Origin: Asterionella formosa
Lineage: Eukaryota
Assembly (NCBI GenBank): GCA_002256025.1
Contig: NKIB01008526.1
Coordinates: 1 to 64,000, forward strand
DNA: 64,000 bases
Reading direction: 5' to 3'
Position numbers and translations under genes: made by a program. Below the pieces are notes generated by a model. The model saw nothing but the letters and a program-made list of their open reading frames with translations. It was not told the DNA's origin and did not search any database. Each line of letters opens with the position of its first letter. Positions within the stretch are counted from its first letter, which is position 1. Below are positions 1,362-51,703 of the stretch, one piece after another.

Positions 1362-3654
1362 ATGAAAGGTGATCACATCAGCACATCGATATCTGTCAGT
1401 CGGAAAGCATCATCCAATACAACACCAAATGTAGCCAGAGGAAGAATTTACCGAACCGTTGTCAGTGGCCAAACGAAATGGGTAACTCGGGACCTAGCAG
1501 CCTTGGATTTCTTGCTAGGAATCCCTATGGAAAAAGAATCGACATTAGTTCATTCAGGATGGCAGCGAAATCAGCAGCCAGCCCAGGGAAAATGGTGGGA
1601 AAAGCTTATTCATCAAACTCCTGGAGTCCCTAGAAGGGTGTCAGGCGACAACAACATTTTGGAACAACCAGACTCCCAATCCGTGGACAAAACGAACGAT
1701 CGCACTGTTGTGACTGGTGGGCGAAGCTTAGATGGCGACGAAGCTACTAAAGTGGCCATCCCGAGAACTGGATTTGCGATGACTCGGCAAAGATCGATCG
1801 CAAGACAGGCTGAAATCCGAGAATGGGAGTTACAAGTAGCGCATGGTCTACAGGATGAAAAGTCGTATGGTCTACTTGATGGAAGAGTCTTCTTCTCGAG
1901 CAAAGAAAATTATCCGATCTCCGTTTTTAGTGTCATACGCTACGAGCCGAAGCGAGAAGAGGCAGCAAGACTGAGGCAAAAGTTGGAAGCGCGAGGCGGA
2001 GGTGGAACACAGTTTGTAGTCCCCGAACGTGATTGGCGTGAGTATTATTTTGTGTTCGTTGATGTAGGTTTGTTCGTGTGTCCTTTGCTCAACAATTTTC
2101 CTGTGCACTTTAGGAGGGACGTCATATAGGGCTTTGCTTGTTCGCCATGAAAAGAAGAACAAAAAGTTTAATAGGTTTATTGGGCCAGAAACAGAAGCGG
2201 ATGAGTCAGATGTGTCATCGTCAAGTTCCGAAGGTGGTGATGCATACGTTCCAGGCTTTCTCGACGATCCCGACATGGTGCAAGGCAGGAATCGGAATGT
2301 TGTCATTGGAGACCGTGTAACAGGATGTATAGTATCCTCGACAATACAATTTGTAAAACCTGCGGACCTCAAAGCCGATCTCAACAAACAGTTTCGGGAA
2401 AGATTTGATGGATGGGAGCCGCCCAAGTCGCTTCTAAAGTTTATTGCTGCCAAGGTCGTTGACGGAGTTTATACATTAGCGGATCCAAAAGATGTCACAG
2501 ATGGGCATGATGATCACGAAATAAAAATGCATGAACCCATGCGGCGACCACGCCTGGGTTCTATACCGTCTCCCGCAGAGACTAAAGAAACGATCAGAAT
2601 GCCGCCTTCCCTGACCCTTTCCAAAATACGATCTATCAAGCAGCAGGCTTTAAAAGCTGCTGTCAAGGCCAGACTAGAAGTCAGCACAGTTGCTTTAGCG
2701 TGCGTTTATTTCGAACGCCTTTGCCTTGACTGTCGAGTGGATAAGTCCAATAGACGATTGTGTTTTGCTGCTTGCCTGTTGTTAGCAGCAAAAATTAACG
2801 AAGCCAATGTGGTTGGTCTGGTCACGAGAAATCAAGAAGAGAACACCAAAGAAAAATCGGGTATACAATCATTGATTAGGCCCACACAGAAGAGCAATAC
2901 TATTTTTGCCAGTCTTCTGGAGTTTATGACTCAGGATTGGTCACTTTCCCTCAAGCATTTATTTTCTGCTGAATGGGGAGTGTTCGCTGCTCTTGGTTTC
3001 GAGCTTCATGCCACGCCATCTCAAGTATCTTTCCACTTTCGGCGGCTCATGAAAGTTCTCGAATGGCAAGCTTTATCATATCTTGGATCTGATATGTATA
3101 GCCAATGGCAGGATTGTTTGCTCAAGGAAGAAACAAGAAGGCAGGAGCGTGAGCAGAGGAGAGAAATCCGTCGAGCAAGGAATGAAAGGAAATTGCTCAA
3201 AATGGAATTCAAGCTAAAACAGGAAAGCGAAAAAACCAACATGCGATCAAATTCCGATGATTGGCATGAAGCTGCCAGTCACACCGTGGACACTACGATG
3301 TCATATGACCTAGGTCGACAAACACTGCTTGATCCTCCTGGTCTGGATGATCGACGAAAAGGTGGTGCTGCCAGGAAGCTTTTGAATCGACTAACTATGA
3401 AACGAGCACCCAGCCAGGAAAGTTTTGTTACTGCTAAACGTATGGTTATGTCAAGCAACAACGACAAGTCCAGACTATATAAGAAGAATTTGGGTATTCC
3501 GAAATCATCGTCCACACCAATATTACAAGTGCACAGAGAGAGCGAACGTTATCACAAGGCCGAGCATGTTGCAATCGATGTCAGTTTTAATATAGAATCT
3601 CACTCTTCTGATGGAATTGATGAAGCTACAGATGAAGAAGGCATTGTCATTTAA
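1362..3654 (+). CDS. CABLES-like protein with C-terminal cyclin box; exons 1362-2037, 2114-3654
   Basis: Intron GTGAGT(2038)...TTTAG(2113) joins the two ORFs in frame (DWR/GTSYRALLVRH). The segment SLTLSKIRSIK...STVALACVYFERL...NRRLCFAACLLLAAKIN matches the Cables-type cyclin fold. Confidence 0.8.
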
Positions 3655-5660: not shown

Positions 5661-6021
5661 GTAATCGCACTCGTGCCCACTTGAATGGACACAATTGCTT
5701 ATTATCAGGTGATTGCTTTGTGCGCGCATTCGACCCTGACAGAATCTAGCTCTCTGGTTAAAAATTCCAAAAAGAATTTCGATTGGGGAAATGAGTTTGA
5801 CCCTATTCGGGAAACTGCAACCGTCTAGTAGGAATGCAGCACAAGCTGGTGCTTGTAGGGGGGCAAACCCACTATTTCTGGCACACCAGGCAAGACCGTG
5901 CAAGACAGCAAGGAGTGTGGAATTCGAACTCAACAAATTGCTTCTAATAAATAGCGGGAATCAAACCACACAACTTCAGATCAAAGGCAACGTGCTCAAC
6001 CAACTACCATAAGCCATTCCC
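5661..6021 (-). mobile_element. tRNA-derived SINE with a family-A head and a different tail
   Basis: 5806-6021 matches 345-560. 5663-5695 (AATCGCACTCGTGCCC...AATGGACACAAT) matches 37701-37733. Confidence 0.6.
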
Positions 6022-6480
6022 TCATTTGACAATCATGGCAGTCTTAAAAGCGGCAACAGAGGCAATGATCTATGCACCACCCACAACTGATGCACCTTCT
6101 CCAATAACTCGGAATAATGGAATTATCCCAGACCCTGATGATACCAAAATCATTGAGCTCTACGCACACAAGGGCGTGATGAACAAGGAAATATACATTT
6201 CATGGGCAACTTGCTCCATACAACAAGATAAAGACCTGCATCAAATAATGTAATGTTCAGTTTATCTCAAGTAGCTGTAGTTGCATGATACTTTTTGTGG
6301 GATAGGCCAGCTGTCGATGAAAATATTATTCATTAAGTAATTTAGGAAAATGCCAGAGAACGATTTGCAGAGTCAGTCTCTGAACACGATCCGGATTTGC
6401 TGACTGATAAACAGGATCAAGAAAATGTCTTCTAGTTTCGGAATCCACATAGGAATCCTACCTTTCTACGTTTAAAACTT

Positions 6481-7392: not shown

Positions 7393-7943
7393 TTTTTTTA
7401 TTGGTGAATTCCATTAGCGAACCATCATCCAGTTGCTGAGTACCATTACCATTAGTAGTGGTGAACACAATATTGATGATCAGGACCTTGAATGATCATT
7501 TTACATTGAAGAAAGTTGCTTAAGAGAGTTTGGAATGAAAAGCCAGTCCATCTCATCTGGAAGGCATGAGACAATCCATTTGGAGTGTGTCGAAACTGAA
7601 AAGGTGCGCATAAAACGTGCGCTACCGGATCTTCCAGGTTGGTACTTTCAGTTGCTTATGTACTCGGATTAGTGGTACCAGGTACCGTATGAAACACGAG
7701 CGAATGATGTGGGATGGGGAGCCCCACTTCCCTCATTATAGGCACTACATCAAATAGCGGAATTTGTCATCACTGGCAGGAAGAGCAGCAGTTTACGCAA
7801 GTTGCCAGTCCCAAGGCACAGCACGCTTCGATTGAATGGCATCTGAGACTTCGGTTGGAAAGAAATATCACAACGAAGATTATTTGACAGATAGAATCAC
7901 AAATCGGTGACCAAGGACTTTCTCCTTGGGTAAGATTGATTGC

Positions 7944-10900
7944 ATGTCTTCGCGTTGGGGTCCACGCGTTCCTCAAGAAGTACCCGAAGGAGCTGCTCCG
8001 GATCCTACAGAGGTAGAGCTCATCACGGACGTGGAATGGGCTGATGCGAAGGATCGTCAAGCGACGGGAGAGCTGGCAACCAAGCCTAAAGCCGTGTACA
8101 CAGATCCTTGTGGTTGCACTGCTTCAGATGATGGCATGCCTTGCTGCATTGATGAATCATGTGTCTTGTATGCTTGCTTAGAAGAGTGTCCAGCTGATTG
8201 CTCGTCTGGAAATGCTTGTAGAAATAGGCGGATTGCCAAGAAGGAATGGAAGAACGTCGAAATCGTAGATGCCGGACCGAAGGGCCGAGGCCTCGTGACA
8301 CTCGAAGACATAAGGCAGGGGGAATTCATCATAGAATACGTGGGGCGGGCCATCAGAAAGGCTTATTTGGAGAAACTCTTTGGCAGGTACAAAAACGAAC
8401 GGATGCTTTATATCATGGCGCTCGATACTGACATTTACATTGATGCCAGGACAAAGGGTGGAAAGGCGCGTTTCATCAACCATTCATGCGAACCAAATTG
8501 CGTTGTACACCGTTGGAAGGTCAACGGCATTTTACGTGCCGCCATATTTGCTACCAAACATATTAAGGAAGGAGAAGAACTATCCTTTGACTACAAGTGG
8601 GAACGAAAGCGGGGCCGTGCTCCAACAAAGTGTCATTGTTGCACGCCTTCTTGTCGTGGAACGTTGGAAATGCCCAAGTCAATGGAAGAGGAAGAAGAAG
8701 AGAGAAAACTAATGAGTCATTGGAAGAAGCCGATTAATAAGGAAGCTGGGAGAGAAATTGTGAACCGATCGATTCGAATTATGTCCGATGAGCATCATGA
8801 ATGGTTCTCTGCGGATGTAATCAAGTACGACGAAAGCAGCGGAAATCATCTAGTAATGTATAGGGCCAATTTTGAGGAGGCATGGGAAGACTTAAAGAAA
8901 GAGAACTGGATGATTTTGGATGAAGATGCAGAGCAATTCGTCATTGCAAAGAAATCAGCTCGTCCTCGATCCTTACATCAGCCAACGAGTTTGTTGCATG
9001 CATCAGGTTTGGACGGAACCCAAGGACGAGTACAGGGAGAAGTAAAGAACTACCTGTTTGTGCAAACACCAATCAAAGACGGATTCTTGAAGCAGGGGCT
9101 GTTTGATCGATGCCAACGAACTGTCGGAGTTGTTATCGAATTTGAACGGGTCATGGACATCGAAACAGATTCGCAAGGGCAGACAGAAGAGGACTTGGAC
9201 CGAAGGCAGGCCCTGTCAGAGTCCAAAGACGGTTTTGCGTGGAAAATATCTGTTAGTGGTAAAGGTCATGAAGCAATCATTCATGCTTTGTTCATCCTCA
9301 ACAAGAACGTCGTTTATCTGCACAGCAAATACAACATTGAAATGCCAACTAGTATGGCATCCAATATACCAAAGAAAGTAACTTCGGAGCTATCAGAGGA
9401 AGTCATTATTCCACGAGTCATCGTGGATCAGATTAAGAGAAGGATGCCATTGATTCGAGAGCTTTGCCGGAATGTTTCAGTTACATTTGCTCCTTCTGAG
9501 AGCAAGAGCAAGCAGTTTGCTAAACTGTTACTAGAAGCGAACATCGAATCTGACCTCTTTGACGCCAAAAAACAGCTCTGGCCTCAATGTATCGCGGCAT
9601 GTGTAGAAATGCAAGCAGAGTTTAATTCGTTTGGAGCGCACAAAGATTTGGGATTCTTTGGGGGCGAACTTAGCAGCGAGCAGTTCAAGCTTCTCGTAGG
9701 GCTGCAGCGAGACTTCACGTTAAATCAAGAATGTAATGAGGACCTGAGAAAATCGTCTTTCTTCAATTCTTTTCAAAACACTCACAGGTGTACTGTGTGG
9801 GTGCAAGCGGAAGATGACATGGGTCGTATTGATCGACGCACTTTATCTGTCAGCGAAGCTGTGCCCAATGCCCCAAGAAAGATATACTTCGGGTGTGATC
9901 CCAAAGACGTCCCAAAAGTCTGGGGCTTGGTGGAAACTCGTGCAGCTGAATTGGCCAGAGGAGTACGATACCTTCATTTAGGTGCTGATAAAGTGTATCA
10001 ACAATTTATGATGCGAAAAGGTGGACAATTCTTTGATTATATCCAACGTACTTCTGGGGCTTCCGTGCAAATTGATTCAATGACAGGCGACCATCTCAGA
10101 ATAGATGGCCGGGTATCGGGGTCTGGGATAATTCAAATTGGAGATTGGGACTCGGAGACAACACTGGGAGAAAGCGACAAAGCTGCTTTAGCAGAAGAGC
10201 TGATTAAGCTACAGATTGAGCTGTATAGAGATCATTGTACTCGATACGAAAGCTGGATATTTGGTCGAGATTGGACTCTATCAAATTCTGTTGATAAAAA
10301 CGTAAAGACAGAAATGCAAGCAAGCGCTTCAGCCCATGCTACAACTCTTTCGACCAGGGCCCCAGGAACACCATCCGGTCGCAATCAGTTCGAGTCTCGT
10401 AGTGTTGCTGTAGCGTGCATGGAGATTGAAGATATCAATAGCAACTTGGAATTGGAAGGAATGGTCGCAGCACACGCTGTTGTGATCCTCTATCGATTCC
10501 TTCATGTACTTGGTGAAAACGAAACTCTGGGAACAAGCTCAAAGCTTCGCGAGCTTCTCCTGGCCAGCCTTTTCTTGGCCAACAAGTCTCAAAAAGTGAC
10601 AAAATGGAAACGAATGGAAAGCCTCCTTGAAGCAGCTTACAGGAGCTTCTACCCTGGAACTCGGTTCGACAAGGACAACGAAGAGGTAGCAATATTGGAG
10701 AGTCGTGTTATCCAAGCGGAGAGTGAGATTCTGGAAACACTGGACTTTGACATCTTTTGGAGTGGGATGGATTGGGTGCTACGAGCGGCTATCGAAGGCG
10801 GCCGAATCGCAGAGCCTCTTGCGAAAAATGCATTTGACACTGCTTTGAGCGGACCAGTCCTGGCAGCCGGTTCGGAGGTGTGGCTCAGTTTCGGTCCGGC

Positions 10901-13238
10901 ATATGTATTTGCTGCAGTTGCTGGTTTCCTTTCTCTCGACCTCGACCCTATCTTTGCTGCGCTGTCTCTGATCCCCTACAAAGTTTGCCTTGTTGCGGAA
11001 AGGATTCTTGAATCAATTAATTCATCTTCTATCTCCAAGAGGGCTGCTAATATATCAATTTTCAACGCTGGAAACAGTGGTCTCATCAATAGCTTTGATC
11101 AGATGAAGCAAAACTGTATGAACGCGATGACAAACCGAGTTCGGTCTGGTTTGGCCCCTCACGCAAATCTGTCCGAAGTTGGTGCCCGTTACATGCTCAT
11201 TGGCCAACGAGATTCTCGAAGGTTGATTTTCCGAGGTGTTTCAAGTGATGTTGTGCGGAACGAGATTGTTCCTGTGATTGATGGAGTGATTGCTGAGAGC
11301 AAATGCAAGATCCTTGTTGGCGAGAATGACAAAGGAGGTTCAGAAGATATAGTGTTGGAAGGCAGTTGGAGAGCATTGGCTATAGCCGAATTCCTTATTA
11401 AGGGTGCTTGTACAAAGAAAGGCTCGTTCCCTTCGCCAGTCGATGCATTTACAGCCAAGGAGGATGCAGTCTACAAACAACAGTCCAAGCGCCAACCTGG
11501 TTTGCTAACAATGAGTGCAATACACACCGCAGAAGGCTGGGACGGGACCATCCAATCGAAACTTCGTAGCGACTCGGTTGGGCGGAAAGTTGGTGGGAAG
11601 GCCTGCGTTGCAGGCAAAATCCCTGAAGAAAGGCTTCGAAAAGTGGGCCTTCGATGGTGGATTCCTCCACGCTATGGACCCAGCCCAACAGCATCCATCT
11701 GTGACATGTTTTGCATACGGACCCCGACAGGAGGGGAGGACAAGCGTTTGGAAGACCTCAAGGCACTCGTGGATTTGTCTATGGCGTTGCTCGGTGAAGC
11801 ATCAGCGTCATCAGAGTTCCCAGTGCTCTTTTCGGTGTCGTCAAAAAGAATTGAGAATTCTCAAGCTGATCGATGCATTGCTGTGTCAATGCAGCGCTGG
11901 CCGTCCGAGAAAGTTTCTAGCAAGGAGCAAGGGAAATCCTCTTCCAAACAGTCACAACTTGGCTATTCACCTGCTGCCCTGCAAGAACTGCAACTATTAA
12001 CACAGCTACACTCCCTCATTCCATCACCGCAGGGCCACCCGAATTTCATTTTGCCGGTTGCCATTGCACTTCCTCAAAATATCCCCAATAATGCAACCCA
12101 TGACCAGCCGGAAGCAAGCACTTTTGGTCAACCACAGAAAGATATATTTTCTCTATTCCAAACCAGCGAACAAAATGAACGACGAAAAGAGAAAGAAAAG
12201 AAATGGAAGGAGATGGCGACTGGCCCTCATCTTGTTTTCCATCCTACTCCTTTTGTTCTGCAGCGAGTTATCTCGTGTTCGAAGAAAAACCGCGACGATC
12301 CAGATTCTGCGATAAGTTCGCCGCTGCTCGCGGCATGGTTCCACGATTTGCTTTCTGCGTTAGTTCATTGCCATACTAATCACGTGGTTTTACGCGCATT
12401 CCAGGCTGATCAAGTGTTCTTGGATGACAGCGGTGTCGCGAAGCTATCAGGGCTCTATCGTGCAACAATCCTTCCTTTCAACGAGCGAGCTACTTCTATC
12501 AATCCTCTGCGCAATGCCCGTTCCGCAAAGAAAGAGAAAGGAAGAGAGACGCAGGACGATGGTAGTGATATGACGAGCAATCCCTTTGTTGCACCTGAAA
12601 TTCTTCTTGGGTCCATGAAGCACACGAAAGAAACCGATATCTGGTCGATTGGTTGCCTCATGGCGAATTTGCTTCTGGGCAAGCCGTTATTCGTTGGAAA
12701 AGAGAGAACCTCCGTTCTCATGGCCATGTTCAAGATTGTGGGCACACCTGGAAAAGAAAACTATTCCGATGCCTCGCGCTTCCCCTACTATAGAGATCCT
12801 CCTAAAAAGTACAAGCGTGGTGTCCAAAAGGCTTTCCAGCATATGATGAAGGATGAAGACTACAAAGTGCACGAGAAAGCGATTGATCTCATCGCTGCAA
12901 TGATCTATTTGGATCCACAAAAACGTATCACCGCTGTCGATGCGTTGAAGCATGAGTATATGATTCAGTACGTCGAGGATTGCTCCACGGAGGCTTTTCG
13001 TGGACAATTCGTGCAGGATTGGATGTCGCTTAAGAAACGGCTTGTGTATTCGAATAAGAACGACGAGATTGAGGCTCGGCAGAATGAACAGTCTGCTAAG
13101 CGCAAGGCTATGATTTTGGCGACACAGAGCTCACCTGCAGAGGACGAAGTTGATGACCTTTATGATATGGATGAGATTCTGGGGGGAAGGACGGAGAAGA
13201 AATCCAGGCTTTCTGTTGGCTACCATGGAATGCCGTAA
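7944..13238 (+). CDS. Multidomain protein: AWS-SET-postSET (Set2/ASH1-like) + Tudor-like + KH-like repeats + cyclin box + CDK-like (pseudo)kinase
   Basis: Uninterrupted ORF, first ATG at 7944. SET motifs ARFINHSCEPNC, ELSFDY and CHCCTPSCRG. Tudor-like EWFSADVIKYD...HLVMY. KH-like MRKGGQFFDYIQRTSGASVQI. Cyclin LLLASLFLANK...IQAESEILETLDFDI. Kinase C-lobe FVAPEILLG...TDIWSIGC...GKPLFVG...DPQKRITA. Confidence 0.88.
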   Translation: MSSRWGPRVPQEVPEGAAPDPTEVELITDVEWADAKDRQATGELATKPKAVYTDPCGCTASDDGMPCCIDESCVLYACLEECPADCSSGNACRNRRIAKKEWKNVEIVDAGPKGRGLVTLEDIRQGEFIIEYVGRAIRKAYLEKLFGRYKNERMLYIMALDTDIYIDARTKGGKARFINHSCEPNCVVHRWKVNGILRAAIFATKHIKEGEELSFDYKWERKRGRAPTKCHCCTPSCRGTLEMPKSMEEEEEERKLMSHWKKPINKEAGREIVNRSIRIMSDEHHEWFSADVIKYDESSGNHLVMYRANFEEAWEDLKKENWMILDEDAEQFVIAKKSARPRSLHQPTSLLHASGLDGTQGRVQGEVKNYLFVQTPIKDGFLKQGLFDRCQRTVGVVIEFERVMDIETDSQGQTEEDLDRRQALSESKDGFAWKISVSGKGHEAIIHALFILNKNVVYLHSKYNIEMPTSMASNIPKKVTSELSEEVIIPRVIVDQIKRRMPLIRELCRNVSVTFAPSESKSKQFAKLLLEANIESDLFDAKKQLWPQCIAACVEMQAEFNSFGAHKDLGFFGGELSSEQFKLLVGLQRDFTLNQECNEDLRKSSFFNSFQNTHRCTVWVQAEDDMGRIDRRTLSVSEAVPNAPRKIYFGCDPKDVPKVWGLVETRAAELARGVRYLHLGADKVYQQFMMRKGGQFFDYIQRTSGASVQIDSMTGDHLRIDGRVSGSGIIQIGDWDSETTLGESDKAALAEELIKLQIELYRDHCTRYESWIFGRDWTLSNSVDKNVKTEMQASASAHATTLSTRAPGTPSGRNQFESRSVAVACMEIEDINSNLELEGMVAAHAVVILYRFLHVLGENETLGTSSKLRELLLASLFLANKSQKVTKWKRMESLLEAAYRSFYPGTRFDKDNEEVAILESRVIQAESEILETLDFDIFWSGMDWVLRAAIEGGRIAEPLAKNAFDTALSGPVLAAGSEVWLSFGPAYVFAAVAGFLSLDLDPIFAALSLIPYKVCLVAERILESINSSSISKRAANISIFNAGNSGLINSFDQMKQNCMNAMTNRVRSGLAPHANLSEVGARYMLIGQRDSRRLIFRGVSSDVVRNEIVPVIDGVIAESKCKILVGENDKGGSEDIVLEGSWRALAIAEFLIKGACTKKGSFPSPVDAFTAKEDAVYKQQSKRQPGLLTMSAIHTAEGWDGTIQSKLRSDSVGRKVGGKACVAGKIPEERLRKVGLRWWIPPRYGPSPTASICDMFCIRTPTGGEDKRLEDLKALVDLSMALLGEASASSEFPVLFSVSSKRIENSQADRCIAVSMQRWPSEKVSSKEQGKSSSKQSQLGYSPAALQELQLLTQLHSLIPSPQGHPNFILPVAIALPQNIPNNATHDQPEASTFGQPQKDIFSLFQTSEQNERRKEKEKKWKEMATGPHLVFHPTPFVLQRVISCSKKNRDDPDSAISSPLLAAWFHDLLSALVHCHTNHVVLRAFQADQVFLDDSGVAKLSGLYRATILPFNERATSINPLRNARSAKKEKGRETQDDGSDMTSNPFVAPEILLGSMKHTKETDIWSIGCLMANLLLGKPLFVGKERTSVLMAMFKIVGTPGKENYSDASRFPYYRDPPKKYKRGVQKAFQHMMKDEDYKVHEKAIDLIAAMIYLDPQKRITAVDALKHEYMIQYVEDCSTEAFRGQFVQDWMSLKKRLVYSNKNDEIEARQNEQSAKRKAMILATQSSPAEDEVDDLYDMDEILGGRTEKKSRLSVGYHGMP

Positions 13239-29481: not shown

Positions 29482-29818
29482 AGAAGTTTGTTTGCTGCTT
29501 TAGTTTAAGCAAGATTCACGTTCATTGCTTAAGGTTGCGGCCACGGCTTAACCCTAGCTTGGAGAAAAAATCGCTAGGGTTGTAAAAACGGCATGGAACA
29601 GGGAGTTTCCTACCATAGATTCCCATGATTCAAGTGTCCATTTGAATATTTGAATTAAATAGGAATCGGCGCCAGATTGACAGAGTTCCATTTCAAACAA
29701 ACAAAAATGATTTTTAAACGTTGACACTATATCTTCATTGCTGGATGTAGACATGATTTTGCTCAATGCCAAAACACATATATAAATCAGGAGTATGCCA
29801 ACATGTATGCTCATGGTT

Positions 29819-30124
29819 TGTCCACGGGCCAACGCCCCGACGGGTAGGGCAGACTGCATACTGGTCAAGACTGGGGCTGCACACAGGTTTTTAGTGAGTG
29901 AAAGTCTCACACTACCTCGCCCAGGTGAGAGGGGCGGGGTGCCTCACCGGACACTGGGACATGATTGGATGATGGGGTGCCTCAAAAACATTCCTGAACA
30001 CATGAACTGGTGGGAGGAGTTCGAATCCTCCCATGATGCCCCCGAGCACCCCACATCGATGGGGCAGGCGGGCAAAGCGGCCGGATAGGTTTTCTCCTGG
30101 CGCCTTGGAACAGCCAAAAAAAAA
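29819..30124 (+). mobile_element. Retroposed GC-rich insert (SINE-like) with A9 tail and 10-bp TSD
   Basis: GCTCATGGTT at 29809-29818 and 30125-30134 flanks the insert. The uninterrupted site is present in the sister copies near 31112 and 31530. Confidence 0.8.
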
Positions 30125-30692
30125 GCTCATGGTTCGTGTTTATGCGTTATATTGAATCTACGCTGAAGTATGTTGGTTAAATAAAGATCAGCGCGGTACC
30201 AGGTACCGAATTACCAGAGAACCGGTACCTGGTACCAGGTAGTACCAGGTACATATTCTCGGTTCATGACGATGGAAGACAGGATAAAACCAGTACCGGT
30301 GTACCGGTACTGATTTTACCTGCTGGTATGGTAAATGTAATACCGGTAAATGTGGTTCAAGCGTGGCTGGCGTGATTTTACAAGACCGGAATACTTCAGC
30401 CAATCTGGAGCAGGTAAGTAAATTCAATTCAACCAATCAGAATATGTGTAGTGACGCGGCAAAGTACCCTGGAGTCTTTTCGGACTGAGAATTATTCAGC
30501 GAAACATACCTACGCAAGACTCCAAGTATACGAGAACATTTTTGCACGTACAAATTCTGATTCCAATATTTTGGCGACGGTTGAAAAAGCCGATCGGGTC
30601 GACTCTTTCGAGGAGGATTGCTCTACATCTACAGGGTTTGATGAAGAATGAAATAGATAGCCGTGTAGTACCCTATAACGTCAGGAGTTAAC

Positions 30693-30812
30693 TTCTGCAG
30701 AGAAGTGGCAGTTATCCCTCGTAGATTTTTTAAAAGCTTGATGGCCCCCGTTTTAAACTATTTTTTGGATAGTTACGATTCCAAGAGGGATAACTGCCAC
30801 TTCTCTCCAGAA
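30693..30812. repeat. Small MITE-like inverted repeat
   Basis: Perfect 22-bp IR AGAGAAGTGGCAGTTATCCCTC (30699-30720) / GAGGGATAACTGCCACTTCTCT (30785-30806), extendable with one mismatch. Confidence 0.7.
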
Positions 30813-31812
30813 ATGAGGTCCTTACCATATCAGTATATAGATCATACCCCTAAGTCGACCCATGACTGTATCTAAGCATATGCAAAGGGGTCGTATTGGT
30901 GAAAGCTAATTTTACTTTTAACTATTTTATTTCGTTGCTCGTACTGTGTGGATTGAAGTACGTAATAAAATTATTTTGGAAAAAAACAGACCTCGTGATG
31001 TGTAACTGCGGGGCCGCAACCTTAAGCTTATGGTTGCGGCCCCGGCTTAACCCTAGTTTGGAGAAAATATCGCTAGGGTTGTAGTATAAATCAGGAGTAT
31101 TCCAACATGCATGCTTATGGTTCGTGTTTATACGTTATATTGAATGTACGCTGCTGTATGTTGGTTTAATAAAGATCAGCGCGGTAATAGGTACCAAAGT
31201 ACTGGTACCAGAATACAGGTGTACCGGTATTACATATTCTCGGTTCATGAGGATGGACGACAGGATGAAACTAGTACCGTTGTACCGGTACTGATTTTAC
31301 CTGCTGGTATGGCACATCTAATACGTGTGGTTCAAGTGTGGCTGGCGTGATTTTACAAGACCGGAATACTTCAGCCAATCTGGGGCAGGTAAGTAAATTC
31401 AATTCAACCAATCAGAATATGTGTAGTGACGCGGCAAAGTAACTCTGGTACGTCGGTACCTGGTACCGTGCTGATCTTTATTAAACCAACATCCAGCAGC
31501 GAAGATTCAATATAACGTTTAAACACGAACCATGAGGATACATGTTGGCATACTCCTGTTTTATATATGTGTTTTGGCGTTGAGCAAAATCATGTCTACA
31601 GACAGCAATGTAAATATAGTATTAACGTTTAAAAATCATTTTTGTTTGTTTCAAATGGAACTCTATCAATCTGGCGCCGATTCCTATTAAATTCAAATAT
31701 TCAAATGGACACTCGAATCATGGGAATTCATCGTAGGAAACTCCCTGTTCCACGCCGATTTCACAACCCTAGCGATATATTCTCCAAACTAGGGTTAAGC
31801 GGGGGCCGCAAC

Positions 31813-31911
31813 CTTAAGTTTAAAGCAAGGTGTCGGTTTCCTGCTTAAGTTTAAGCAAGGTGTCAGTTTCCTGCTTAAGTTTAAGCAAGATGTCAGTTTC
31901 CTGCTTAAGTT
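31813..31911 (+). repeat. 30-bp tandem repeat, ~3.3 units
   Basis: CTTAAGTTTAAGCAAGGTGTCAGTTTCCTG repeated. Confidence 0.85.
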
Positions 31912-45075: not shown

Positions 45076-45620
45076 TCCCTCGAGGTACAACGTTATGAAG
45101 AACAGAACACCTCCTCAAGTGCATATTGGATTGTTGTGGCAGGGAAAGTACCATGTACCGTACCTGGTTATCTGCTATATACCAGGAGTGTAGGTAAAGC
45201 AACCCTATTAATATTCTACGTACGGGTGGGTACCTGGTACCAGGTACCAGGTTCTCGGAATACCAGGTACCAGTACCTGGAGTTGGTACCAGGTACCAAG
45301 TAACCAGGTACACCTTACGCATACGTATTCACAGAAGGGTGGGGCACTACTTGGTGTTTATGGTAACCAGGTCGTACCATGGTACCAGATGTATCGTATC
45401 AGGTCCCTGGTAGGAGTAGTCAACAGGACCGGCGGTACATATCATGTCGCAAAGTTGTGTATTTTCCATAAACGCAAATACCGGTAGGCGGTAGTACACG
45501 AAGTACCTGGTACGCGGAGTACTGGTACATGTATCTGTTTGATGTTACATACAGAACATGGACCTGTTAATTGGTACGTACGTACCTCGTATCAGATTGA
45601 CTACCGGCACCAACATCTAT

Positions 45621-48600
45621 TGTATATCTGCATATGATGCTCCATACATGCGCCGTGCGAACCATACCGGCGCAGCCACCAGATTAGGTACATGCGTGAG
45701 TGCTAACAATGATGTACTCGAAACAGCAATAGAATAGTCATAATATTGTAGTTCACCTTAATTCACAACAAGGTTCCCCTCAACAGAACTACAATATCTG
45801 TTCTCTCTCCCTTGTCTGCATCTGTGACGTTGCGGCTCTTGTCGGCGGTGCACACCAGCACTGTTCTCAACAATCAACCATACAGCACCGCTTGCCCATT
45901 CGCTTTCCCTGTCTCTTGGGCCTTCTTCCACCATGATGACTACAATCGTTTCCGCTGTTTTCCCATTCCCTCATCCGCTCTTGACGCCGATCGAGGGCAA
46001 ACCTACAGCCCTCACTGTAACCCGCCTTTGCAAGGAACTCTTTGCCAATGCTCGCTCTGTCCACTGTACCAGTGGTGGTGGTGCCAATGGTTTCCTTGGT
46101 ATTGTCATGGCTGCTGCTCCTTATCATTTATGTGCTGGTCAACCCTTTTTACCGCCTGAACATCCCGGCACCCAGCCGCCACACAGTGCTACTGCAACAC
46201 AGTCCCAAATCACTGCTGCCAACTGTCTCTTTGAAACCTCCCTTGACGCATTCCGCCGTTACTCCCAAATCCGTGAAATTCTCCGACAGCAAATTCTAAC
46301 AGCCATTGACCCAACTTACTGCAACGTTCTGGAAGATGCTACATTTGGATATGCAGACATCACTGTTCTGACCTTGCTTGCTCACTTAGAATCTACATAT
46401 GCAACGTTGAGTGCAGATGATTTAGAACTTAATCGCAGGTGCTTGGCTCATGCTTGGACACCAGAGGAACCTATTGAACATTTATGGATCCGCATCAAAC
46501 ATCTTCGTGCCATTGCCGATGCTGGTGGGGAACCTTTCTCTGACAGTACTGTCATGCGATTGACTCTTTCTGCTTTAGAACAGGATGGTGTATATTCTCA
46601 TAGCATTCAAACTTGGCGTGATTGCGCTGAGGTGGACTGTACATGGGTTAATTTTTGCCCGCATTTCATGCATGCTGATAAGGAACGATTGCGCCTTGCC
46701 ACTGCCACCACCGCCGGTTATCATGGTGCCCATGCTGCCATTCAAACCAGTGGCCCTCCCACATTGCCAGGTATTGCTGCAACTGCTCGTGCTGTCCCTC
46801 CTGGATACACTTACAACAATGTCCAATTAGGCTATTGTTGGACTCATGGTCTCACCAAAAACCATGACCATACCAGTGCAACTTGCAATCATCCAGCTTC
46901 TGGCCATCAACTCACTGCCACCCTTGATCGACGTATGGGTGGCAGCGTCCGTATTTTCAGTGATGGTACCCGTCCCACCCGGCCACCCCGTGTTTCACCG
47001 CCATCTTCACCACTTGCTTGATGTGGAGGGGAGCAAGTTGCTGTCGATAATACTATTAACACAAACTTATCTCCCATCACTTGTCCTCCGTCACACTCAT
47101 TGCTGATTCTGGCAGTTCTGGCAATTACGCCACTGTTGATTTACCTGCCATCAACAAACGACCTACCACCAACCCTATCACCATTCAACTTCCTAACGGC
47201 AACCATGTTAAATCTACACATGAGGCCGAATTATCTTTACCTATGCTATTACCCGCTGCTCGTCATGTACACATTTTCCCTGGTCTGCACAATTGCTCTT
47301 TATTGAGCATTGGACAACTATGTGACTCCAGCTACGAGCCACTCTTCACCAAACTGCACATGTCTGTCTTATCAATGGTCATTGCATCCTTCAGGGCCAT
47401 CGCTCCACCACTCGATTATGGCATGTCACCACTGCCACTATTGATCCACCATTGCCTACCCCTAACCACTATGCTGCTACCGCCATTGGCAGTCCCAATG
47501 CACCAGCCCTTGTTGCCTTTGCCCATGTGGCCCTCTTTTCTCCTGTTATCTCTACTTTGGAAAGCGCATTACTCCATGGGTATCTTGTCAATTTTCCATG
47601 TCTAACCTTAACTACACTACGCAAACATCCCCCTCATTCCATCGCAACCATCAAAGGCTACCTCGATCAAACACGTCAAAACGTACAATCCACACGTGTG
47701 CCTCCAACTATCATTGAGCCTGAACTTGCAACCATTCCTACCAATGTGCTGGGTGATGCTGATTTCCACCCTGAGGGTCTTGCAACCCCTACCCATATGT
47801 GTTTTGCGTCCATTATTGCACCCACAGACCAAATTTACACTGATCAAACCGGAAAATTCATCCTCCCCTACAGCACTGGAAACAACTACATTATGATTTT
47901 ATATGATTATGACAGCAACTACATTTTCGTTCAGCCCTTTCATAACCGAACCGCTTCATGCCTCCTTGCAGCATATAAAACATTACACCAACGCTTGTGC
48001 AAAGCTGGCCTACGTCCCAAACTTCAACGCCTCGACAACGAGTGTTCTACACTCCTCAAAGAGTTCTTGGACGCCGAAGCTATTGACTTTCAGTTGGTCC
48101 CGCCGGCTGTCCATCGTTGCAATGCTGCTGAACGTGCAATTCGCACCTTTCAAAACCATTTCATTGCCGGTCTATGCAGTGTCGACAAAAACTTTCCTCT
48201 CCACTTGTGGGACCAACTATTAGTTCAATCTGAACTTACTCTTAATCTCCTCCGTGGCTCACACCTCAACCCCAAACTGTCTGCTTGGGCACAGGTCAAT
48301 GGAACATATGATTACAACCGTGTCCCCCTTGCTCCACCTGGCTGTCGGGTCCTTGTTCATGCCAAGCCCCAACACCGCACAACATGGGCTCTGCATGCTC
48401 TTGATGGTTGGTATGTCGGCCCTGCTGTGGATTCCTATCACTGCTACCGCACACATCTGGATGTGGGACACACATTCAATCAGAATCTGCGATACTGTCT
48501 TGTGGTTTCCAACCAAAGTCCATCTACCCTGTAATTCATCCACGGACCTCATCACAACCAGTTTGCAGGACATTGCCTATGCCTTGTTACATCCCACCAC

Positions 48601-51180
48601 TCGGTCTCCTGTTGCCCCACTCACTGCAACCCACAAAGCTGCTCTCCAGCAGCTCCTTGAAATTCTCTCACCGCCTGAGCTCATCCAACTACCCATTGCT
48701 CCCCTCCTGCATTGCTCCATTCCATCACTGAGGGTGCCTGGTACACCCACAGCATCCACCATCCCCCTTCTCCCTGATCCTGATGCCTGTACACCTTTCC
48801 CGGTCTCTCCAGCCCTCGATGGCGCTGCCCACCACTGAGGGTGCTTAACCCTAATCCTAACCCTACCGACCCGAGTGTTGTTAACCCTACCCCAAACCCT
48901 AACCCTCACCTCGCCGGTAACCCTAACCCTAACCCTAGGTCCCCTCCTGCCAGTGGCCGCAAGATCATTCCAGCACCCCCTTGCACCTATTGCGATGCTG
49001 TTGTGCTGCCCAGTCCCCTACCACCTTCCCCTTCGGACACTTATGACACTACCACTGTGCCCAAGAGCTGTCGCCGCCATAAAAACACACCACGTGATGC
49101 ACCACATGTCAGCCATCCCCACACCCAATCTTTGCTTGCCAACTGTGCTCTCTCCGCCCCTTCTCAAACCAGTGCTACTCCCCTGGCCACTAATTTTTGT
49201 TTCCATGGCACCGCTATCAACCCTGACAATGGCAAAATTGCTGGATATAGAGAATTATTGACTTGCAGCGCTGCTCCCCTGTGGGCCACCGCCAACGGCT
49301 TAGAAATTGGCTGATTATTTCAGGGCTTGGGACCCCATTCTGACATGCCCACGGGTACTAATTGCTGTTTTTTCATTCATAAGCATGAGATGCCCTCACA
49401 CAAACGCGCCACTTACATCCTCATTGTGTGTGCCAATCGACCCGAAAAAACCATTCCCCAACGCGTTCGTTGGACCGCTGGGGGTGATCGTGTCATTTAC
49501 ACTGGCAATGTCAGCACCAAGACTGCTGATCTCACTACTGCAAAATGTTTGTTCAACAGCACCATCAGTACCCCCAATGGCCGCTTCATGACTCTGGATT
49601 TATCTGATTTTTATCTGGAAAGTCATCTTGCACCTGCCGAGTATGAATACATGCACATCCCTATATGGATGATCCCCCCACACATTCAAACCCTCTACAA
49701 CCTAGCTCCCAAAATCATTGATGGGCACATCTATGCCAAAATCCGTCGTGGCATGTATGGGCTGCCTCAGGCTGGTAAACTTGCCAATGATCAACTTGCT
49801 CAGTTCTTGCTCCCGCATCATTACCTCCCCTGCCCAGTCACCCCTGGCCTATGAATGGATACCACCAGTGATCTCATGTTTACGCTTGTTGTTGATGATT
49901 TTGGTGTACGTTACACCAAACGTAGTGACGTGGACCGTCTCCTCACCACTTTACGTACCAAATACCGTCTCACAACTGATTGGACTGGCTCTTGTTACAT
50001 TGGCCTTACGCTGACGTGGGACTACGAACATCGCACCGATGACCTCACTATGCCTGGTTACATTGTTCATGCTCTACAACGATTCACGCACTCCACCCCA
50101 ACACACCCACAACATGCCCCCCATGCCTGGACTGCACCTAGTTATGGCGTGCGCCAGCAATTTGTTGTTTCTGATGTCACTACTGTCCTTGACCTCCATG
50201 ATAAAACTCGTGTGCAAGAGATTCTTGGTACTTTATTGTATTATGCCCATGCTATTGACTGTACTATGTTGCTGGCCCTTGGTACATTTGCTACACAACA
50301 AGCAACCCCCACTGTGGCTACCTTGACTGCTATTACTCACCTTCTCAATTATTGTGCCACTCATCCTGAGGCCACACTTCGCTTTACTGCCAGTGACATG
50401 GTCCTCCATGTTGAAAGCGATGCCTCCTATCTATCTGAAATGCGTGGTTGCTCCCGCGCTGCCGGCATTCACTTTCTCAGCTGTAAACCCTTGTCTCCGC
50501 CTAGCCTCACTACGTCCATCCCTCCTCTTAACGGCGCTATTTACGTACACTGTCAAATTCTTAAGGAGGTTTTATCAAGTGCTGCTGAGGCCGAATTAGC
50601 TGCTTTGTTCCACAATGGCAAAGAGGCATATACTATTTGCAACATTATTATTGAGCTTGGTCATCCCCAACCTTCTACCCATATTGTCACCGATAATAGC
50701 ACTGCCAGTGGCATCGCCAATGATACCGTCCGACAAAAACGCTCCAAAGCTATGGATATACGTTATTACTGGGTATGCGATCGGGTTCGCCAAGGCCAAT
50801 TTCTTGTATACTGGAGAAAAGGTAGTTTGAATCGTGCTGATTATTTCACTAAACATCATCCCGCTTCCCATCATATGTTGATGCGCCCGCACTATCTCCA
50901 TTGCCCTCCATCCCTCCCTAGTCCTCCTAACTATTATGCATGCTTGGCTTCCGATGCTGATATCATCTCCACCCAAGCTCCTGTTCTTCTGCCTGAACCT
51001 GTTGGTGAGGGTGTGTTAATATCTGCATATGATGCTCCATACATGCGCCGTACAAACCATACCGGCGCAGCCACCAGATTAGGTACATGCATGAGTGCTA
51101 ACAACGATGTACTCGAAACAGCAATAGAATAGTCATTATATTGTAGTTCACCTTTATTCACGACAAGGTTCCCCTCAACA
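45621..51180 (+). mobile_element. Full-length but decayed Ty1/copia LTR retrotransposon (CoDi-like)
   Basis: TG...CA LTRs at 45621-45785 and 51014-51180, TSD TCTAT/TCTAC, PPT GGTGAGGGTG. Domain order gag (45933-47021), PR (IADSG), IN (YTDQTG...LDNE...NAAERAI), RT (YGLPQAG, LVVDDFG), RNase H (SDAS...AEAE...TDNS...ADYFTK). Pol has stops and frameshifts. Confidence 0.95.
45933..47021 (+). CDS. Gag of the copia element (open ORF)
   Basis: GGGANGFLG motif and C-terminal YCWTHG...H...TC...GH knuckle, inside the LTR-bounded element. Confidence 0.8.
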   Translation: MMTTIVSAVFPFPHPLLTPIEGKPTALTVTRLCKELFANARSVHCTSGGGANGFLGIVMAAAPYHLCAGQPFLPPEHPGTQPPHSATATQSQITAANCLFETSLDAFRRYSQIREILRQQILTAIDPTYCNVLEDATFGYADITVLTLLAHLESTYATLSADDLELNRRCLAHAWTPEEPIEHLWIRIKHLRAIADAGGEPFSDSTVMRLTLSALEQDGVYSHSIQTWRDCAEVDCTWVNFCPHFMHADKERLRLATATTAGYHGAHAAIQTSGPPTLPGIAATARAVPPGYTYNNVQLGYCWTHGLTKNHDHTSATCNHPASGHQLTATLDRRMGGSVRIFSDGTRPTRPPRVSPPSSPLA

Positions 51181-51340
51181 TCTACAACGCCGATTTGTGG
51201 TACCTGGTACAACTGCCACCAACAAAATATCTTGTCAACAGCATGTATTACGAATTTGACTACCCTACAAACATAGTTTAATGGTATGACATCACATAAA
51301 AAATATGATGCATCACATTATATAAATATAATTGGAGTGA

Positions 51341-51703
51341 GGGAATGGCTGACAGTAGTTGGTTGAGCACGTTGCCATTTATCTGAAGTTGTTGAGGTTC
51401 CTGCAATTTTTTTAGAAGCAATTGTTGGGTTCTACTACCACACCATCCCACATGGGCTTGGCTGGTGTTCAAGAAATAGTGGGTTTGACCCCCTAAAAGC
51501 AGCTTATACCACCTTTGGCAGTCATAGTATCCCCTAACGCTGTGGCTAAGATCACCTTCTGTGAATAGTTGTTGGGGACTCACCTAAGCTAACAAAACTA
51601 GGGAAGCATAGGTCTTGTCAGCAGGCAGCACAATGAGTGCTTGCCTTGAAAAAGGGGAGTGAGTATGGGCCATAAAACAGATTATCATTTATATAATAGG
51701 AAT
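51341..51703 (+). mobile_element. tRNA-derived SINE, family A
   Basis: Reverse-complement homolog of 176-560 along its whole length. Confidence 0.7.

Follow-up and report, generated by a model that had tools for sequence, protein, structure and literature searches.

How does a copia element prime its reverse transcription when the site directly behind its 5' LTR is complementary to a stretch of that same LTR? The question is raised by a decayed Ty1/copia element, flanked by two LTRs, at positions 45621-51180 of the window, by which we mean the whole 64,000-nucleotide stretch of Asterionella formosa contig NKIB01008526.1 analysed here. An initial annotation had proposed that the element is self-priming in the manner of the Tf1 retrotransposon.

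The element carries the traits of a Ty1/copia retrotransposon, including two TG...CA LTRs, a 5-bp target-site duplication, and a polypurine tract (Table 1), and its two LTRs differ from each other by seven substitutions and one 2-nt gap. Because the ends of the element are fixed by the target-site duplication TCTAT/TCTAC (4/5) and the purine tract GGTGAGGGTG, the primer site begins without a gap after the LTR. The pol order of protease, integrase, RT, and RNase H was read in sister copies and from the order of motifs in the proteins P0001, P0002, and P0004, the last of which is a database protein from an intact relative and 89% identical to the window element. The DSG protease motif was found in P0002 and the SH3 and RVT_2 domains at residues 367-423 and 840-957 of P0004, to which we add, by eye and without a Pfam match, what we take to be the integrase core in P0002 and the RNase H motifs following RVT_2. 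The Pfam RVT_2 model matched 28/29 aligned relatives, weakly, with scores of 19-21 bits against a cut-off of 31.6, which suggests that these elements form a distant copia branch. No match was obtained in a Pfam search of the window element's own broken ORFs and gag, in a PDB sequence search with P0001 and the alignment A1, or in an Rfam search of 45500-46000 at E values up to 5. Membership of the Tf1/sushi group is out, as integrase precedes RT in the window element, versus the order RT, RNase H, integrase in Ty3/gypsy elements.

The diatom proteins recovered in homologue searches are about 52-63% identical, and no named CoDi reference was among the matches; all matches named to a eukaryote were diatoms (Fragilaria, Fistulifera, Cylindrotheca, and Nitzschia), and one match was filed under a bacterium. 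Short contigs in bacterial metagenome-assembled genomes (L209, L210, L211, L213, and L214) are complete elements or large pieces of elements of the clade, most likely through binning contamination, and none of the 44 pattern matches in viral contigs was a relative of the element. The genome itself holds at least 54 exact junctions of LTR end and primer site belonging to the window family.

Table 1. Annotated and predicted features of the copia element, in coordinates of the window.
Feature	Coordinates	Strand	Remarks
Left target-site duplication, TCTAT	45616..45620	.	4/5 identical to right copy
5' LTR, 165 bp, TG...CA	45621..45785	+	
Initiator-like motif TCATA; predicted start 45740 or 45741	45738..45742	+	Spacing in 34/34 distinct sites
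Paired part of predicted self-primer, ATATTGTAGTTC; predicted cut after 45754	45743..45754	+	Cut placed by analogy with Tf1
31-nt loop, rest of R and U5; predicted minus-strand strong-stop template	45755..45785	+	
5-bp inner stem, ACCTT 45755-45759 / AAGGT 45770-45774, stacked on primer helix	within loop		Predicted fold
Predicted primer-binding site GAACTACAATAT, directly 3' of LTR, without TGG	45786..45797	+	
gag ORF, 362 aa, open, ending in TGA	45933..47021	+	Without Pfam match
pol, with domains in the copia order (protease, integrase, RT, RNase H); frameshifts and stops in window copy	47022..51132	+	tblastn with intact relative P0004
Polypurine tract GGTGAGGGTG	51004..51013	+	Equal tract before 3' LTR in relatives
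3' LTR, 167 bp, with second copy of primer motif at 51138-51149	51014..51180	+	
Right target-site duplication, TCTAC	51181..51185	.	

Several features beside the priming region were noted in passing. In 29/33 loci with a protease motif, gag and pol lie in one frame with a single stop between them (25 TGA and 4 TAG), and the other four, including the window copy (47019-47035), have further breaks. Starting six bases past the gag stop, three positions mostly read GGG, with G counts of 23, 26, and 26 among 27 distinct contexts (the wobble position too), and RNGC usually comes next (L147-L214 and the window). Such a context resembles a stop-codon readthrough signal; only about 7/27 contexts have a strong stem downstream. 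The pol frame reads through the purine tract (GEGVL) and the entire U3 of the 3' LTR to the stop TAG at 51130-51132, directly 5' of the initiator-like motif, and CCCTAA-like units (TAACCC) at 48845-48940, within the proline-rich spacer between integrase and RT, attract unrelated reads. Elsewhere in the window are a frame of 1775 codons that contains SET, cyclin, and kinase domains (7911-13238), a second frame with a cyclin domain (2068-3654), and a region with 294-bp inverted repeat arms (91%) and nested inverted and direct repeats (29528-31818) that is like a non-autonomous DNA transposon. A dispersed repeat family is present at 175-561, 5809-6024, and 51338-51699; one of its copies is oppositely oriented and lies 160 bp downstream of the element's 3' LTR. 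Units of GGTACC / CCAGGTACC are dense in the intergenic stretch 45140-45600 as well as beside many other insertions of the element's family.

Examination of the 5' LTR and the sequence behind it revealed that GAACTACAATAT (45786-45797) is the exact reverse complement of ATATTGTAGTTC (45743-45754), with a 31-nt spacer between them, as the initial annotation had stated with every coordinate right. Its two accompanying observations were also borne out, in that the LTR motif is kept in the 3' LTR, at 51138-51149, and a TGG-type tRNA primer-binding site is absent, the site starting directly after the LTR without TGG. The fold of 45743-45797 has a predicted energy of -13.9 kcal/mol and a z-score of -6.1, with 0/200 shuffles as good, although this z-score is overstated because the stretch was picked around the repeat. 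The inner stem of the loop is specific to the window family and not found clade-wide, and predicted loop folds differ among the 34 relatives described below. We also considered a longer helix formed by AGAAUAG (45731-45737) and CUGUUCU (45798-45804), which presupposes that transcription begins further upstream; it was rejected because relatives do not keep it, Watson-Crick pairs at positions 13-22 being present in only 4-12 of 34 distinct sites.

The two arms were then followed through copies of increasing distance. Among the close copies, defined as the best 30 of 40 own-genome matches listed, all 12 pairs were present in 23/30, one G-U pair in two, and mismatches in five. An older own-genome set of 20 low-identity loci, chosen from 150 Gag matches, contained a perfect repeat of 10-14 bp in 12/20, with seven loci decayed and one without an LTR, and in these older subfamilies both arms had been swapped together (GAAC/GTTC, GAGC/GCTC, GAGT/ACTC, GAACTACGTAAT, and GAACTGATAATTTA). 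Outside relatives were drawn from metagenome and genome collections and amounted to 73 loci, the metagenome scan contributing from the best 80 of 563 matches; 26 loci without a Gag match and seven with less than 100 nt of upstream sequence were dropped, leaving 40 assessable loci that include some near duplicates. A perfect repeat of 9-15 bp was present in 37/40 of these, of at least 10 bp in 35/40, and of at least 11 bp in 33/40, and a perfect inverted repeat of at least 11 bp arose in 5/1220 shuffled upstream regions. The three misses are a locus with 11 bp and one G-U (L178), one with no LTR visible (L211), and one with two mismatches (L198), whose 9-bp repeat lies off the LTR end and was left uncounted.

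Merging identical sequences reduces the 50 positive loci to 34 distinct 12-nt sites, among which all four Watson-Crick types are present at pairs 3, 4, 7, and 8. When the LTR arm of one element was crossed with the site of another, at least 9 bp were formed in 6/1122 crosses. When placed on a Gag tree, the 34 require at least 79 two-sided changes, summed over pairs 1-9, a figure that describes drift while paired, since loci were detected via the repeat and pairs 1-9 are thus paired by construction; the test against chance is therefore the count of 37/40 outside loci. Pairing persists in the 34 sites even where Gag identity has fallen to about 27-35%. The covariation between LTR motif and primer-binding site that the initial annotation named as a check is thus found among relatives, both arms changing together over 34 different sites. 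In one element (L101, G000:C537) a tandem duplication of ~44 nt has enlarged the loop to 87 nt with the 12-bp pairing intact. The 34 primer motifs are also biased in composition, with C as the last base in 31/34, T before it in 30/34, A five from the end in 31/34, and A right after the predicted cut in 27/34, a bias at the 3' end that may reflect a preference of the cut or of initiation.

The right arm is preceded by CA in 21, TA in 12, and AA in one of the 34 sites, so that CA or TA is found in 33/34 against a background of 0.155, a figure that, like the background for the initiator below, does not represent independent trials because the 34 rows are related. Of 23 loci checked for two LTRs, 12 had both ends comparable, and the site lies exactly at the repeat end in seven of these, the alignment end being ragged by at most 6 nt in the remaining five. 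The LTR ends in TA rather than CA in 12/34 relatives (including L207). In L185 the LTRs (292-436 and 5751-5898) run TG...TA and the target-site duplication, CATCC, is perfect, so that the clade's integrase seems to accept TA ends. On the other side, an initiator-like motif, mostly YCATAA, lies 5' of the left arm in 34/34 distinct sites, with the initiator A at 15 nt (8 sites), 16 nt (20 sites), or 17 nt (6 sites) from the 3' end of the arm. The pattern CA[TC][ATC], which was written after the data had been seen, is present at 15-17 nt in 34/34 against a background of 0.12 per 3-nt window, and this distance is fixed while loop length ranges over 26-87 nt (26-61 nt in all but one relative). Perfect pairing ends short of the initiator A in 34/34, and RNAs begun at the initiator A are predicted to form the helix in 33/34. 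The window motif TCATA fits the diatom Inr-like motif TCAH(+1)W, a motif that occurs in 67.9% of 80-nt upstream regions and is hence loose (PMC4686930), and the upstream stretch from -45 to -4 held no conspicuous TATA-like motif. Transcription is accordingly predicted to start at 45740-45741, 2-3 nt upstream of the 45743 favoured by the initial annotation, and the primer would comprise 14-15 nt with its 3' 12 nt paired.

RNA data were available as assembled contigs from 12 runs, with word shares of 0-0.24, and such contigs show neither starts, ends, nor strand. Those of four metatranscriptomes cover 27-30 of 30 element bins, in material where DNA may be present. One contig (X2 record 9, 45664-45824) spans U3 through the primer site. 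Such a contig would not be expected if transcription began at 45740, although DNA carry-over or a merging of the two R copies in the assembly graph can produce one. Another contig (X3) ends at 51160, inside the predicted 3' R, and as a single contig is no evidence.

These placements bear on the possibility that the repeat is a structural hairpin that acts in packaging, dimerisation, or translation control, or as a U5-IR-like helper, with priming carried out at another site or by another primer. Hairpins near primer sites are known, fungal GalEa copia elements have a conserved hairpin in place of the primer-binding site (PMC5445492), and the transcription start used here is a predicted one. Against this, the right arm begins exactly where the LTR ends, the point from which minus-strand synthesis has to set out, and the left arm keeps a fixed distance of 15-17 nt between its end and the initiator-like motif although the loop varies freely, neither of which a generic hairpin needs; the primer helix is also almost free of G-U pairs or bulges. 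We consider a purely structural role improbable.

A second possibility retains the element's own RNA as primer but takes it from somewhere other than the 5' end in cis, either from the motif in the 3' R (51138-51149) or from the 5' end of a second packaged RNA. The 3' LTR does hold an identical motif, and the copies are indistinguishable by sequence alone. It is, however, the 5' copy that closes the 31-nt loop, with a predicted pairing probability of 0.98, and the fixed initiator distance would be purposeless for a 3' copy, making this arrangement very improbable in our judgement.

Host tRNAs were compared with the site using 70 distinct calls obtained from 62 Rfam matches and their neighbours, with 63 of 3876 rough candidates scored. 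The set of 70 calls is incomplete in its nuclear part, lacking several isoacceptors; within it, neither the 3' end nor an anticodon half of any tRNA was complementary to the site, so that no tRNA among those compared fits as a primer should. The best match, of 10 nt, pairs the first 10 nt of the site with the 5' end of tRNA-Asp(GTC), at about positions 4-13, and 9 nt of the GAGC variant match the 5' end of tRNA-Arg. In 34/34 sites the element's own LTR pairs over a greater length than any tRNA of the set, the tRNA match being 4-8 nt in 32, with the set taken from the Asterionella genome itself and the hosts of outside elements falling beyond it. A genome search for the 11-nt complement followed by anything but the AY of the LTR gave 99 sites; ARAGORN called no tRNA overlapping any TATTGTAGTTC match in the 50 loci scanned, and most pattern sites beyond those loci coincide with primer-site junctions.

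Priming by a fragment of a host tRNA, namely the 5' end of tRNA-Asp(GTC), would account for the perfect 10-nt match and for the 9 nt shared by the GAGC variant and tRNA-Arg, and many primer motifs do end like the start of a tRNA D-arm (TAGYTC-A), a likeness to tRNA 5' ends that follows from the 3'-end bias of the motif. The tRNA-Asp gene, however, sits on a tRNA-dense contig (C13186) that is probably the plastid genome, and a 13-nt 5' fragment is absent from the three primer types given in PMC6317226. The match is also shorter than that of the LTR at every one of the 34 sites, the covariation with the LTR would go unexplained, and the ARAGORN scan offered no further candidate, which together leave a tRNA fragment with very little credibility. 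Chance, or a single duplication-inversion inherited by the family, could explain the agreement among young copies, which at 90-94% alike reflects inheritance when taken by itself, but is refuted by the covariation of 34 different sequences that stay paired at the Gag distances given above, set against the rarity of such repeats in shuffled regions, and has a negligible probability.

Taken together, the geometry and covariation of the arms and the failure of any tRNA among those compared to fit the site support the self-priming reading of the initial annotation, and we consider it highly likely that the best explanation for the window element is that it primes its own reverse transcription as Tf1 does; the diatom copia clade to which it belongs very probably does the same. 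RNA polymerase II would start at the initiator-like motif in the LTR, at 45740 or 45741, and the first 14-15 nt of the transcript are predicted to fold onto the post-LTR site, with 12 bp paired and the 31-nt loop closed. Cleavage behind 45754 would follow, by analogy with Tf1 and probably through the RNase H of the element, leaving a 3'-OH opposite the first base past the LTR, from which RT would extend across the 31-nt loop to give a very short strong-stop DNA. This DNA would then move to the 3' R, and R would regain its first 14-15 nt from the 3' LTR. If the primer is copied as well during plus-strand synthesis, any alteration of the LTR motif would pass into the primer site, and copying of this kind would allow the arms to drift freely yet stay matched.

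This model extends tRNA-independent priming, demonstrated in the gypsy element Tf1 alone and predicted in the plant TAR copia elements, to a large and widespread clade of diatom copia elements, and natural compensatory changes support the extension. Its predictions are exact (a start at 45740-45741, a cut after 45754, and a 31-nt strong-stop DNA), and an active diatom element with this trait, if there is one, would permit a first experimental test of self-priming in a copia element. Elements of this kind would likely be overlooked by annotation that identifies primer-binding sites through tRNAs, and would offer no targets to tRNA 3' fragments. The basic picture of LTR retrotransposition is unchanged, the mechanism being known and already predicted in another copia lineage.

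The initial annotation had also mentioned a similar loop as proposed for a diatom copia element. No such proposal came to light; in its main text, the article on the CoDi elements (PMC2806351) contains none of the words 'Tf1', 'loop', 'priming', or 'tRNA', and no report of a self-priming diatom copia element was found in the literature searched, mostly outside subscription journals and the notes of GyDB and Repbase. The CoDi elements (CoDiI and CoDiII; Blackbeard and Surcouf) share with the window element their identity as diatom copia with one or no break between gag and pol, and its short LTR of 165 bp is close to the 163 bp of Blackbeard, a comparison made from descriptions rather than reference sequences (PMC2806351). 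Fungal GalEa elements are a further case of copia without a tRNA primer site and with a paired structure in its place, the Conserved Hairpin Site, a 9-10-nt palindrome after the LTR that has no LTR partner (PMC5445492). The window element lacks a site of that type, its own being no palindrome and pairing with a stretch within the LTR.

The closest mechanistic parallel is offered by the Tf1 and Tf2 elements of Schizosaccharomyces pombe and, more widely, by the Tf1/sushi and Tcn1 chromoviruses of the Ty3/gypsy group, with which the diatom clade has in common a site complementary to its own LTR and the lack of a tRNA match. Lin and Levin are said to have found in 1998 that a further, U5-IR-like stem is required in Tf1, and no U5-IR-like second stem common to the 34 relatives was found in their predicted folds. 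In Tf1, whose self-priming is treated in PMC7175516 and PMC3592414, the RNA's initial 11 bases anneal to the site and cleavage by RNase H falls between bases 11 and 12 (PMC7175516). The diatom clade differs in having 1-7 unpaired 5' bases predicted ahead of the helix, with a predicted primer of 14-17 nt and a loop of 26-87 nt; moreover, Tf1 is a gypsy element, in contrast to the copia arrangement of the window element with integrase before RT, and its self-priming was established experimentally, versus predicted from sequence in the diatom clade.

Among copia elements, self-priming has been predicted for 89% of 203 plant TAR elements, including Houba and Osr-1 (PMC6317226). The contrast drawn by the initial annotation, of self-priming in gypsy and tRNA priming as the norm in copia, therefore stands for Tf1 and needs correction for copia, and the window element is not the first copia element for which self-priming has been predicted. 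By the criterion used for self-primers in that study (PMC6317226), at least 10 bp located 0-5 bp after the LTR, the window element (12 bp) and 35/40 outside relatives would be counted as self-priming, a likeness to TAR in this criterion; the TAR hosts are plants, versus the diatoms to which the clade's named eukaryote matches belong. A self-priming ancestor of LTR elements has been floated (PMC3601003), and tRNA-free priming could be ancestral to a deep diatom copia branch, possibly as a relic of such an ancestor rather than a late invention, with a clade-wide, initiator-fixed primer of 14-17 nt, strong-stop DNAs among the shortest, and a site rewritten in each cycle, a scenario that we regard as unlikely. 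We lean instead towards the view that the diatom clade represents a third independent clade-wide origin of self-priming, beside those of Tf1/sushi and TAR.
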